In this document: one piece after another, positions 34,916 through 39,245 of the stretch
Position numbering within the stretch: position 1 is the first letter of the stretch
Layout of the letters: every line of letters starts with the position of its first letter
Source: a virus
Taxonomy: Duplodnaviria; Heunggongvirae; Uroviricota; Caudoviricetes
IMG/VR virus record: IMGVR_UViG_2558860161_000002
Reading direction: 5' to 3' (one strand)
DNA length: 39,245 nt
The notes under the pieces: model-generated
The model's database searches: none
What the model was told of the DNA's origin: nothing
What the model saw: only the letters and a program-made list of their open reading frames with translations
Translations under genes and position numbers: made by a program

Positions 34916-36004
34916 TTACGCCAGTACGCCAATTGCCAGCGCGCGATCGATAAAACGAAATATCAGCTCCAGTTGGGAGCCATACTTATCTTCAAATGCC
35001 ACTGTATCCGTATGCAGCTCGTTGTGATGCTTTCTGCACAAAGGCAACACAAAGAGATCATGTGCTTTTGTTCCCATTCCGCCCTGCCCGTGACCAATCA
35101 GATGATGCGGATCGTCGGCTGGCATACCGCAGCAAGCACACGGCTGTGTCTTAACCCAACGTGTGTATTTCTCCTTAACCCAGCGGCGACGTTTAGGCAG
35201 CTTCATGAAAGATTCCGGAGACTCTGGATCAACGGTGATGCTTACCACCGTCTTTTCCTGTGGTGATTTTTGTTGCTGGTGGGCGTAAGGCAACGGTGCA
35301 AGATTTTTTGTGCGTTGTTTCAATATGCTGGTGGCGGTCTGCTCTCCCGGTACGATGTCGCTTTCGCGGTACACCGAGCAGATTTTTTCCGCTGGTAATC
35401 CCAGCGAACGACGCGATACAGCCTCAGGTAGTGCATCCACCACCTGATTGCAGACCGCCCACCAGGATAATTCAGCCAAAGATAATTCCCGCTCCTGCGT
35501 ACCGCTTATTGCGTGACGGATGACGTCAATCACCCATGCTGTCAGATTTTGTTGAGCAAGCAGCTCCAGTGATTCCGATGTCTGGTCACGCAGTTGGTTG
35601 TCGCAGTGCCAGCACAACACCATTGCGCCGGTACCATAACGGTGAATGACTGTTTCAGTGTGATGGTAATCGCCATTAGGCCACTGGCAGGATGTAACAT
35701 GACGTAATAGCCAGTCGGACAATGCGCCAACGCCGCCAGCAGCACGAATCACCCGTTCGTTACTAAAAAACGGCAGCAATGTTTTGTCTTCCGCCAGCGG
35801 CTGGCGAACGGCAGGAACGACTCCGGATGGCAGATTACGCATGCTTTTTGGTTCCGGTTCCACCAGCACTCGAGGATTATGAAATATCTGTATGGATTCA
35901 CGGCCCGGCTTAAGGACCACCAGCCCAAGCTCAGGCACCAGAACAGGTCTAAGTAATACCCGCACGTTACCTCCAGATCCGTTGCTGGAAAGTGCGGGAC
36001 GCAC
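34916..36004 (-). CDS. ydfU: YdfU-like (DUF968) protein with a C-terminal HNH-like Cys/His motif; start uncertain
   Basis: ORF containing ...QPCACCGMPADDPHHLIGHGQGGMGTKAHDLFVLPLCRKHHNELH... Confidence 0.6.
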   Translation of the reverse strand: MRPALSSNGSGGNVRVLLRPVLVPELGLVVLKPGRESIQIFHNPRVLVEPEPKSMRNLPSGVVPAVRQPLAEDKTLLPFFSNERVIRAAGGVGALSDWLLRHVTSCQWPNGDYHHTETVIHRYGTGAMVLCWHCDNQLRDQTSESLELLAQQNLTAWVIDVIRHAISGTQERELSLAELSWWAVCNQVVDALPEAVSRRSLGLPAEKICSVYRESDIVPGEQTATSILKQRTKNLAPLPYAHQQQKSPQEKTVVSITVDPESPESFMKLPKRRRWVKEKYTRWVKTQPCACCGMPADDPHHLIGHGQGGMGTKAHDLFVLPLCRKHHNELHTDTVAFEDKYGSQLELIFRFIDRALAIGVLA

Positions 36005-36245
36005 GTGGTGGGCGTTCGGAATAAGGCAGCCTGACAGAGATTATCCAGTGCCGATAGTCGAGACTGAGAGCTTTCTTAACCTCGAACCCGCGCCTGCGGT
36101 AAGAATGAATCAGCCATTCGGCCTGTTCTGCAGTGCATGGAGGGTGCTGGAACCATTCAGACTTGAATGCGTGAGAATACCGCCCGTGCGTGCAGGCAAG
36201 AACGGGCGAATTATCAGAATTGTAATATTTTGCGTTGCGTGCCAT
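35967..36245 (-). CDS. hypothetical protein, 92 aa
   Basis: ORF MARNAKYYNSDNSPVLACTHGRYSHAFKSEWFQHPPC...; 3' end overlaps the longest ydfU frame. Confidence 0.35.
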   Translation of the reverse strand: MARNAKYYNSDNSPVLACTHGRYSHAFKSEWFQHPPCTAEQAEWLIHSYRRRGFEVKKALSLDYRHWIISVRLPYSERPPRASRTFQQRIWR

Positions 36246-36311
36246 CGGTTTTCTCCGGTGGCACGGTGTTACTCAGCGGGAGTTCAGCCCCGCGCAAGAT
36301 TGTAGATGAGT

Positions 36312-36563
36312 TTATTCTCCTGAAAAAGCAGAAAAGCCAGCTTTTATTCCGATCTCTTTCAATGCCTGTAATGAAGTGACAAACTCACCTTCGCGCAAGA
36401 TAAATCCGTCCGTGACCCGAGCATCCACAAAATTAATTAACGCAGCCCCATTCTTTCGCAAACACATAATGCGGTAATGACTAACAAGATTTCCATTTTC
36501 AACGCACACAGCATAGAGGCCATCTTCACAAAAAATTTTACGCAGTTCTTCGATGTTCATCAT
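36312..36563 (-). CDS. hypothetical protein, 83 aa (length and position match the Qin rem gene as recalled)
   Basis: ORF MMNIEELRKIFCEDGLYAVCVENGNLVSHYRIMCLRKNGAALINF... Confidence 0.4.
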   Translation of the reverse strand: MMNIEELRKIFCEDGLYAVCVENGNLVSHYRIMCLRKNGAALINFVDARVTDGFILREGEFVTSLQALKEIGIKAGFSAFSGE

Positions 36564-36689
36564 CAGAATCCTTCCGGATAATTAGCTCTCCCCTTTAAGG
36601 GACCATCCCTCTTATCCCTGCGCGCTACTTAAGTATTTTTGATTCTATTCCGGCACCGTCCAGAACTTCAAACGCGTTGAAAATAAAAA

Positions 36690-36712
36690 CAAAAACCCGC
36701 CGAAGCGGGTTA
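36690..36712 (-). terminator. rho-independent terminator downstream of hokD (end of the relB-relE-hokD unit)
   Basis: aacccgc-cgaa-gcgggtt hairpin followed on the minus strand by tttgtttttatttt. Confidence 0.7.
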
Positions 36713-36779
36713 AGTGCGGGTGCGTTGAGGATGCCTGCCACATCAGAGGTGGCGAGGGATTTCTCCCCTGCCGGGTCTC

Positions 36780-36935
36780 TTACTCCTCAGGTTCGTAAGC
36801 TGTGAAGACAGCGACCTCCGTCTGGCCGGTTCGGATTCGTACCTCGCAGAGGTCTTTCCTCGTTACCAGTGCCGTCACTATGACGGTTAAACAGATGACG
36901 ATCAGGGCGATTAACATCGCCTTTTGCTGCTTCAT
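36780..36935 (-). CDS. hokD: Hok-family type I toxin (small membrane protein), 51 aa (below the ORF-track size cutoff)
   Basis: hand translation MKQQKAMLIALIVICLTVIVTALVTRKDLCEVRIRTGQTEVAVFTAYEPEE. Confidence 0.85.
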   Translation of the reverse strand: MKQQKAMLIALIVICLTVIVTALVTRKDLCEVRIRTGQTEVAVFTAYEPEE

Positions 36936-37006
36936 AGCCTGCTTCTCCTGTCAACGCAAAGCAGAAGTGTCACCTTCGGTGCGAAACAGAGATGTCATGC
37001 TTTGGT

Positions 37007-37294
37007 TCAGAGAATGCGTTTGACCGCCTCGCTATATACTTCCGAGCGTTCTCTTTTCCCAACAGAAATCACGAAAACGACAACTTTCTCGTCTATAACC
37101 TGGTATACAAGGCGATAGCCTGAAGACCGGAGCTTAATCTTGTAACAATCAGGCATACCACGGAGCTTGTTTGCTTCAATCCGGGGTGACTCAAGTACTT
37201 CAACCAGCTTCTTTTTCAACTGTTCACGTACCGTCGAGCCCAGCTTTCGCCATTCCTTTAGTGCCCGCTCGTCAAAATCCAGAAAATACGCCAT
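37007..37294 (-). CDS. relE: RelE toxin (mRNA interferase)
   Basis: 95-aa ORF MAYFLDFDERALKEWRKLGSTVREQLKKKLVEVLESPRIEANKLRGMPDCYKIKLRSSGYRLVYQVIDEKVVVFVISVGKRERSEVY... Confidence 0.9.
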   Translation of the reverse strand: MAYFLDFDERALKEWRKLGSTVREQLKKKLVEVLESPRIEANKLRGMPDCYKIKLRSSGYRLVYQVIDEKVVVFVISVGKRERSEVYSEAVKRIL

Positions 37295-37533
37295 CAGAGT
37301 TCATCCAGCGTCACACGTACTGGCTTAGGATTACGAAGCCGTTCTTTCACTATCTCCACAAGTTCAGCATCTTCATCACTCAGGAGTGTCTGTTTGAACG
37401 GCAAGCGTTCATTGTCAGCGATATACTCGAGCATGAGACGAAGCGCTTCAGAAGGAGTTACACCCATTTTTTCAAGCGCGGCGTAAGAACGCGCTTTAAG
37501 TTCATCGTCAATACGCAGGTTAATGCTACCCAT
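37294..37533 (-). CDS. relB: RelB antitoxin
   Basis: 79-aa ORF MGSINLRIDDELKARSYAALEKMGVTPSEALRLMLEYIADNERLPFK...; stop/start overlap with relE. Confidence 0.9.
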   Translation of the reverse strand: MGSINLRIDDELKARSYAALEKMGVTPSEALRLMLEYIADNERLPFKQTLLSDEDAELVEIVKERLRNPKPVRVTLDEL

Positions 37534-37542
37534 GTCTTACAC

Positions 37543-37572
37543 CTCTTGTAATTACAAATGTCATTACAAGTA
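37543..37572 (-). promoter_or_regulatory. relBE promoter/operator region with hexad inverted repeats
   Basis: perfect palindrome ttgtaattacaa (37546..37557) and related tgtcattacaag (37559..37570) just upstream of relB. Confidence 0.6.
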
Positions 37573-37863
37573 TCGCACTACAACATGCTTAGGGCAAGTC
37601 ACGAAGGAAGTCAGAAAGTAGTCGTAAGAACGGTGATCACTGTCCGCTTTGTGCCAGGAGCAGCCATTGCTAAGTCCATCCTGTATTGTGCAGGTCAGCT
37701 CGTTTTTAAAGAGTCCGGCCATCATCTTACTGGTACAGACACCATATACTTTGTGACGGTCAGGCTACATATGCACAACTCAACTTATTCATCTATTTTT
37801 TGCTTTAGCATGTCAGTGTTGCTTTCTCGTCGGCGGGTGAGCGGTGACCTGACCTGTCGATAA
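37558..37863 (+). CDS. hypothetical protein divergent from relB, 101 aa (YdfV-like position and length)
   Basis: ORF MSLQVSHYNMLRASHEGSQKVVVRTV...; begins inside the relBE operator region. Confidence 0.3.
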   Translation: MSLQVSHYNMLRASHEGSQKVVVRTVITVRFVPGAAIAKSILYCAGQLVFKESGHHLTGTDTIYFVTVRLHMHNSTYSSIFCFSMSVLLSRRRVSGDLTCR

Positions 37864-38015
37864 AGGAACGTAGCACGTTTTATGCAACACCCGCATGCGG
37901 CAGAAAATTATTGCCGAACGTTTACCCCTGTCAACAAGCTTTACTTTCTGAGGCGCGCCAGCCCGCGAGGAAAACAATCTGAACATCAAACAATTAATGA
38001 CACAAGAAATACGAT

Positions 38016-38042
38016 TAAAGATTTTTTTGTGCATGCCGATAG
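38016..38042 (+). promoter_or_regulatory. FliA (sigma-28) dependent promoter upstream of flxA
   Basis: TAAAGATT, 11-nt spacer, GCCGATAG, matching the sigma-28 consensus TAAAGTTT-N11-GCCGATAA; 23 nt before the flxA ATG. Confidence 0.7.
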
Positions 38043-38065
38043 TGCTTTTTTAAAAGGAGAAATCT

Positions 38066-38398
38066 ATGTCTGTCACAATTCAGGGAAATACCTCAACCGT
38101 TATTTCAAACAACTCCGCCCCGGAAGGAACATCAGAAATAGCCAAAATCACAAGACAAATTCAGGTGCTGACTGAAAAGCTTGGGAAAATCTCATCGGAA
38201 GAGGGGATGACGACACAGCAGAAAAAAGAAATGGCTGCATTGGTACAGAAGCAAATTGAAAGCCTCAGGGCTCAACTGGAGCAGTTGTTAAGGCAGCAGG
38301 CAGAGAAAAAGAATAAAGACGCGACAGTTCAGCCTGATAAAAAAGAAGAGAAAAAAGACGATACAAATACCGCTGGCACCATTGATATTTACGTCTAA
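38066..38398 (+). CDS. flxA: FlxA (FliA-regulated protein), 110 aa
   Basis: ORF MSVTIQGNTSTVISNNSAPEGTSEIAKITRQIQVLTEKLGK...; aaggaga Shine-Dalgarno. Confidence 0.85.
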   Translation: MSVTIQGNTSTVISNNSAPEGTSEIAKITRQIQVLTEKLGKISSEEGMTTQQKKEMAALVQKQIESLRAQLEQLLRQQAEKKNKDATVQPDKKEEKKDDTNTAGTIDIYV

Positions 38399-38412
38399 GT
38401 GACAGCCGTATT

Positions 38413-38438
38413 GTGGCCCTCATCGGGCCACTTTTCGC
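38413..38438 (+). terminator. rho-independent terminator after flxA
   Basis: gtggccc-tcatc-gggccac hairpin followed by ttttcgcc. Confidence 0.7.
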
Positions 38439-38938
38439 CATCAGCCTTTTCTTTAAAGACATATTATCTTTGTATCATTTCTGATAGTTAACATTACAAG
38501 ATATAAGTAATGGACGCACTCCCAATTAGTCTATTTAAATCGCCACGAGTTTAACTGACAACCCATGATCAATTATGAATTGCAACTATTTCTGTAGTCA
38601 CTTTTGTGGGGACAGTCCACAAAACTGCCAACTTCCGCTTCTTGCTCTTAGCGGACATTAGCATAGGCTATTTACCATAACGCCTCATTACGCGCACCGC
38701 CCAGACTGACTCAGCGCGTTTCTGGCATATCCCCGGTAAAACAAGTAACAAACCACCCGAAAATGAACACCAGAAACGCGACTTAAGAATCTACCCTATG
38801 AATGGATATGCACTCAACCGAATCGATCTTGGTTTCAATCTTTTTTATCGGGATCAGGCTTCTTTTTAGGTAACTTCGGGGGCTTAACTTGCTGATGACT
38901 TTGCGTTCGGCGCGTAAGCCAGGGATGGTCAGCTTTAG

Positions 38939-39245
<307 letters not shown>

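Follow-up and report, generated by a model that had tools for sequence, protein, structure and literature searches.

The flxA gene of the Qin prophage in Escherichia coli K-12 MG1655 (b1566) was originally described by Ide & Kutsukake (1997, Gene 199:19-23), whose title already calls it FliA-dependent and dispensable for motility. Its FliA promoter is thus known, and it was confirmed genome-wide in 2007, 2014 and 2017. Expression of flxA changed -28.4-fold in a fliA deletion and +8.2-fold upon induction of sigma-F (PMC1935009). Fitzgerald et al. (2014) counted flxA among the 'well-characterized FliA-dependent promoters', listed the exact 28-mer TAAAGATTTTTTTGTGCATGCCGATAGT for it in their Table 2 with a FliA ChIP-seq peak score of 16, and recorded a normalised expression of 280 in the motile MG1655 wild type versus 2 in the fliA deletion (PMC4183435). 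Genomic SELEX with the sigma-28 holoenzyme alone gave a peak in the spacer between ydfV and flxA (Shimada et al. 2017, PMC5493296), Zhao et al. is cited among the published experiments backing FliA control of flxA, and in other transcriptomes the gene is co-regulated with flagellar genes (PMC9068703). It is still found among the uncharacterised genes of K-12 (PMC11551758). A strict literature search for 'flxA' returned no paper on the function of FlxA or on conservation of the promoter across the family, and one Erwinia amylovora transcriptome names an annotated flxA and nothing more.

Phage morons are autonomous promoter-gene-terminator units inside prophages, for example bor and lom of lambda. 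The flxA gene resembles a moron in that it stands alone between a promoter of its own and a likely terminator, runs counter to the phage transcription around it and is expressed while in the prophage. Unlike morons, it uses an alternative host sigma factor, has chromosomal relatives in Erwiniaceae and has a toxin-antitoxin module and an IS remnant as neighbours, moving with both onto plasmids. Its promoter can be compared with those of class 3 flagellar genes: tar (TAAAGTTT-N11-GCCGATAA, a perfect consensus) and flgMN (TAAAGATT-N11-GCCGATAA) have like octamers and the same 11-nt spacer (PMC4183435), and the -35 octamer of flgMN, TAAAGATT, is identical to that of flxA (Table 2 of PMC4183435). 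In contrast to the canonical class 3 promoters, the flxA -10 element ends in G, and the gene is not needed for motility, as far as the 1997 title goes. The ykfB gene of the CP4-6 prophage in K-12 is likewise an uncharacterised prophage gene with a bound FliA site and lower expression in a fliA deletion (PMC4183435, PMC1935009). However, the FliA site of ykfB falls within yafY, its upstream neighbour, and expression drops only modestly, from 118 to 42, versus 280 to 2 for flxA (PMC4183435).

Here we analysed flxA in the window, that is, the whole 39,245-nt stretch of DNA under study. The coding sequence, an open reading frame with its ATG at 38066, encodes 110 aa and spans 38066..38398 on the plus strand, stop included. 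On the same strand the -35 element TAAAGATT (38016..38023; 7/8 match to TAAAGTTT) and the -10 element GCCGATAG (38035..38042; 7/8 match to GCCGATAA, the final base being G where the consensus has A) are separated by the 11-nt spacer TTTTTGTGCAT (38024..38034), as read directly from the sequence. Together, 14/16 positions agree with the sigma-28 consensus TAAAGTTT-N11-GCCGATAA, and the -10 element ends 23 nt (38043-38065) before the flxA ATG. An earlier note on this DNA had described a near-perfect sigma-28 promoter with an 11-nt spacer 23 nt 5' of flxA, and all of its coordinates check out in the sequence. Between promoter and gene, direct reading also reveals a Shine-Dalgarno sequence, AAGGAG (38054..38059, plus strand), 6 nt before the ATG; AGGAG is kept in the Enterobacteriaceae-type relatives of flxA. 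The distance from a sigma-28 -10 element to the start site is usually 6-9 nt, and transcription would accordingly be expected to start within 38048..38052 on the plus strand.

How readily could such a motif arise by chance? On both strands of the 39,245 nt, the site in front of flxA is the sole one with at most two mismatches, for which dinucleotide-preserving shuffles give an expectation of 0.01. With up to three mismatches two sites were observed versus 0.29 expected; the second, at 38987-39013 inside the IS at the end of the window, has three mismatches and was dismissed as chance. Short consensus motifs do arise randomly, as this match in the IS illustrates, and one could hence propose that the motif at flxA merely resembles the sigma-28 consensus while the gene is transcribed otherwise. 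The expectation of 0.01 speaks against this, and so do the published ChIP-seq, RNA-seq, microarray and SELEX data for the identical sequence, of which the fliA-deletion data already refute it. In addition, the site is kept at all 11 distant homologue loci compared below, where the flanking bases are at random-level identity. We therefore give a chance likeness practically no credence.

The published data apply because positions 37980-38450 equal the Qin prophage of E. coli K-12 MG1655 save for two coding SNPs at 38267 and 38315, so that promoter, leader and hairpin are identical to K-12. In many E. coli chromosomes the 901 nt around flxA are 100% identical, with the genes annotated ydfV and flxA. 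The K-12 locus shares promoter, leader, start codon, hairpin and the neighbours hokD-relE-relB, ydfV, flxA and ydfW; unlike it, the window has the two coding SNPs and an IS5-family element that interrupts ydfW at 38940, and its prophage still has tail, terminase and lysis genes. The proposal that the host flagellar sigma factor drives a prophage-resident gene thus matches ChIP-seq, expression and SELEX results on the identical K-12 sequence, and the comparison of fliA-positive with fliA-negative cells, suggested in the earlier note as a check, is already in print for K-12 (280 versus 2; -28.4-fold). Nothing contradicts FliA dependence of flxA, the transcript data being those of K-12. We conclude that 38016-38042 is, with near certainty, a FliA (sigma-28, sigma-F)-dependent, late 'class 3' promoter of the flagellar regulon that serves flxA. 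Since the K-12 data cover the identical sequence, the finding is correct but not new. By itself the rediscovery matters little, as the fliA+/fliA- experiment on this sequence has been published.

The ydfV open reading frame (37558..37863, plus strand), annotated in reference genomes, precedes flxA on the same strand and ends 202 nt before it. With this arrangement, a sigma-70 promoter further upstream could supply most flxA mRNA by read-through, for example together with ydfV, leaving the sigma-28 site a minor role. However, without FliA expression drops from 280 to 2, so that any other promoter could contribute next to nothing in the cells compared, and no sigma-70-like site was found on the plus strand in 37500-39245. 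Read-through from ydfV is therefore unlikely to be a meaningful source of flxA mRNA, and as the main route we regard it as very improbable. The sole strong sigma-70-like site of the spacer points the opposite way (37934 to 37907, minus strand). It consists of TTGACA, 16 nt and AATAAT (11/12 matches; 37907-37934), is directed leftward toward relBE and antisense to ydfV, and lies about 80 nt from the divergent flxA promoter. For ydfV we found no Pfam or PHROG match; with a strong leftward promoter-like site antisense to it, this open reading frame may not be a real protein-coding gene.

Expression of flxA would then take the following course, with FliA dependence as its core. FlhDC would activate fliA, and the anti-sigma factor FlgM would hold FliA inactive until the finished hook-basal body exports FlgM, as in the established flagellar hierarchy. 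By the same hierarchy, flxA would then be switched on together with flagellin (fliC), chemotaxis genes (tar) and motAB. FliA RNA polymerase would bind TAAAGATT-N11-GCCGATAG without any other factor, and nearly all flxA mRNA would require fliA, both as demonstrated for K-12. Judging from the sequence, transcription should start a few bases past 38042; the leader would be short and its Shine-Dalgarno sequence strong, and the presumably monocistronic flxA mRNA would probably end at a hairpin at 38413-38435.

This hairpin had been called a clean terminator at 38413..38438. It is a probable intrinsic terminator by its fold (38413..38435, plus strand), with a 7-bp G+C-rich stem, a 5-nt loop and UUUU: GUGGCCC-UCAUC-GGGCCAC at 38413-38431 is followed by UUUU at 38432-38435. 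The structure begins 14 nt past the flxA stop codon, six of the seven stem pairs are G-C, and the 55-nt stretch that contains it folds with -17.3 kcal/mol (z = -3.0 versus shuffles). Thus, the hairpin is real, but 'clean' was a little generous: the U-tract has four U only, and a consensus terminator scan did not report the hairpin at 38413. The tool asks for at least 5 of 8 U directly after the stem; UUUUCGCC carries only four, which is why the hairpin went uncalled. We consider it plausible as a terminator, although not a textbook one, and termination may be less efficient. Scanning 36000-39245 against Rfam yielded no known RNA family.

We then consider the surroundings of the gene. The window represents a lambdoid prophage whose minus strand encodes the large terminase, the tape-measure protein, the central tail fibre J and the endolysin as well as the Q antiterminator, so that flxA is transcribed against the Q and late genes of the phage. 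In Qin-type prophages flxA has the Q region on one side and the early region on the other. Next to it lie the toxin-antitoxin genes relE (37007-37294) and relB (37294-37533), both minus-strand open reading frames identified through the annotation of identical DNA. The order hokD, relE, relB (opposite strand), ydfV, flxA, ydfW is found in K-12 MG1655 (cryptic prophage Qin), O26 RM10386, strain Z142-1 and phage PhiR42_1. On the downstream side, ydfW (38835..38939, minus strand, cut by the IS) is what remains of a transposase gene of ISEsa1 (IS1202-like), namely its 3' end: 48/49 positions of K-12 YdfW are identical to residues 398-446 of the ISEsa1 transposase, its last 49. Hence, the DNA downstream of flxA is an IS remnant. 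Homology with the reference genomes ends at 38939, and at 38940..39245 follows the end of an IS5-family element (ISKpn26-like, starting with GGAAGGTGCGAATAAG) that runs off the window. From 38940 onwards it is 97-99% identical to copies annotated as IS5-like ISKpn26, its closest match, and not one of 5,426 complete E. coli genomes has its junction at 38940 in ydfW. The placement of flxA between a toxin-antitoxin module and an IS5-truncated end thus holds, with ydfV and the ydfW remnant to be added and ISKpn26 as the closest relative of the IS.

The same DNA also occurs outside prophages. On two plasmids that we aligned fully, an Enterobacter IncF plasmid and a 6.5-kb mobilisable Edwardsiella plasmid (L005, L006), the segment from the end of hokD (about 36931/36948) through relE, relB, ydfV and flxA is 99.6-99.8% identical to the window. 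The relBE-ydfV-flxA block reaches 38700 in the Edwardsiella plasmid and at least 38939 in the Enterobacter plasmid, and a full-length ISEsa1 adjoins it in the inspected Enterobacter plasmid. Furthermore, 19 PLSDB plasmids from Enterobacter, Salmonella, Edwardsiella and E. coli carry the flxA segment 37900-38450 with 98.7-100% identity. In the earlier note flxA had been viewed as an isolated unit. By these alignments the unit is part of a small mobile block, relBE-ydfV-flxA, that is also found on plasmids. The selectable component of the block is probably relBE.

To follow the promoter beyond E. coli, we compared 11 loci with FlxA-like genes, whose proteins share about 30-88% identity. Distant relatives were reached by exhaustive protein search, profile search and contig look-ups. 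The set comprised E. coli (the window), Enterobacter sp. HG048, an Enterobacteriaceae metagenome-assembled genome, a JGI metagenome contig, Pantoea ananatis, two Pantoea groups, Erwinia and three more contigs with the Erwiniaceae-type gene order. All 11 loci have a sigma-28-type site with at least 12/16 matches that ends 23-32 nt before the start codon, versus a background expectation in the same loci of 0.015 (at least 12/16) or 0.002 (at least 13/16) per 130-nt segment. The P. ananatis gene has a perfect 16/16 site. The -10 core CCGATA is invariant in 11/11 loci, and the spacing is 11 nt in 9/11; one locus (L012) fits 11 or 12 nt equally and another (L023) fits 12 nt. When the loci were anchored on the -10 element, median pairwise identity was 0.75 within the two octamers and 0.29 elsewhere, which is near random. 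At the level of sequence, the octamers thus form a clean phylogenetic footprint upstream of FlxA-like genes. That the site persists even where the proteins share only about 30% identity, amid DNA that has otherwise been randomised, indicates that selection has long tied FlxA to late flagellar assembly. As a separate observation, flxA of E. coli strain ECGI0523 (L011:2934-3312) is apparently disrupted by small indels, and its upstream 27-nt sigma-28 motif is unchanged.

What FlxA does in this context was approached through the protein. FlxA matches the Pfam family PF14282 (FlxA-like) with 54.1 bits (cut-off 26.3) over model positions 2-96 of 101. An AlphaFold model of moderate quality (pLDDT 65) predicts a helical hairpin with helices at residues 20-42 and 50-86, residues 1-18 and 87-110 being disordered. 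Foldseek of this model against the PDB gave nothing below E = 0.5 and returned generic helical hairpins only; the structure therefore provides no functional lead. In the representative protein library, two large proteins, P0131 (3,361 aa) and P0146 (2,729 aa), contain 17 and 7 repeats, respectively, that resemble FlxA residues 8-51.

Several lines of evidence touch on export. In E. coli culture supernatant, FlxA is enriched together with FlgK, FlgL, FliD, FliC and FlgM (PMC6391000). However, CheY and metabolic enzymes are in the same supernatant list (PMC6391000), so that FlxA could also stem from cell lysis. According to a further study, flxA protein and mRNA are regulated oppositely at 42 degrees C, a temperature at which flagellar export suffers (PMC6551532). 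A class 3 promoter stands in front of every FlxA relative examined (11 loci), and the model predicts a disordered N-terminus followed by the helical hairpin. The enrichment in supernatant, the discordance at 42 degrees C and the family-wide class 3 promoter suggest a fit with late export. As a tentative proposal, which we hold to be rather unlikely at present, FlxA could be a late substrate that is exported through the flagellar type III apparatus.

Where did flxA and its promoter come from? Of the 5,426 complete E. coli genomes, 1,199 contain the 71-nt segment from promoter to start codon, which is at least 99% identical in 1,105 records, and flxA is annotated in 1,200+ E. coli genomes. Close homologues of FlxA are almost confined to E. 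coli and Shigella. A scan of species-representative genomes yielded 5 loci only, and an exhaustive search of 1.8 billion representative proteins gave only 49 clusters at E <= 0.001. The distant members share a common architecture with a Ser/Thr/Gly-rich N-terminus, two helices, a low-complexity linker and a conserved C-terminal tail (...IDIYV/I). Among 50,697 phage records searched by tblastn, flxA was found in a single one, PhiR42_1 from ECOR13, in the same arrangement; phages thus seldom carry flxA.

The FlxA-like genes of Pantoea, Erwinia and related metagenome contigs lie at a single conserved site, and no phage genes are close by. Downstream of flxA come, in this order, a LysR regulator gene in convergent orientation, an SBF-like transporter gene, a small gene with a QSregVF_b domain and a DNA ligase gene, with gltX upstream wherever the upstream flank was recovered. 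The copies at this site are the most diverse members of the family, with 25-37% identity to E. coli FlxA. More generally, FlxA-like genes outside E. coli (L019-L024, L027-L029; L010:3364-4287) have a convergent LysR-type regulator gene next downstream. In the Pantoea and Erwinia loci the flxA-like and LysR-type genes overlap by 4 nt, which leaves no room for a terminator hairpin like that of the window. Other relatives have mobile-element neighbours: two Enterobacter loci (L017, L018) have an integrase and a transposase-type gene (neither was called in L016), a Pantoea ananatis locus (L025) has an integrase, and in L012 an IS110-type transposase gene lies downstream.

Two histories can be weighed against this distribution. 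The promoter might have arisen within the prophage and tied a phage gene to host motility, with the Erwiniaceae copies as later domesticated descendants. The restriction of E. coli flxA to Qin-type prophage or mobile contexts would agree with such an origin, as would the several relatives close to integrases or transposases and the existence of a PHROGs family for FlxA. However, the Pantoea and Erwinia copies combine one conserved site without phage genes near with the greatest diversity (25-37% identity), and just one of the 50,697 phage records carries the gene. An origin in the prophage therefore fits less well than an old unit carried into it, and we consider it improbable. Most economically, the gene and its sigma-28 promoter had probably long formed a unit before they entered a Qin-type lambdoid prophage. 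It is from the distribution only that we infer a transfer from chromosome to mobile element rather than the reverse, and several relatives do lie near integrases or IS. On balance, FlxA is likely to be an old, conserved member of the Enterobacterales sigma-28 regulon that was captured by mobile elements together with its promoter.

This reading modifies the idea that the prophage gene was wired into the host flagellar regulon. Control by FliA stands, but the prophage probably did not evolve the promoter, as comparison with the non-phage site in Erwiniaceae indicates. What our analysis adds to the published promoter is its family-wide sigma-28 conservation, the Erwiniaceae orthologues at a conserved non-phage site and the plasmid-borne relBE-ydfV-flxA block. 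The evolutionary picture is corrected accordingly: a regulon gene would have been captured with its promoter, and the prophage would not have wired itself into the regulon of its host. For a gene that is on the list of uncharacterised E. coli genes, the long tie to late flagellar assembly is a useful clue.
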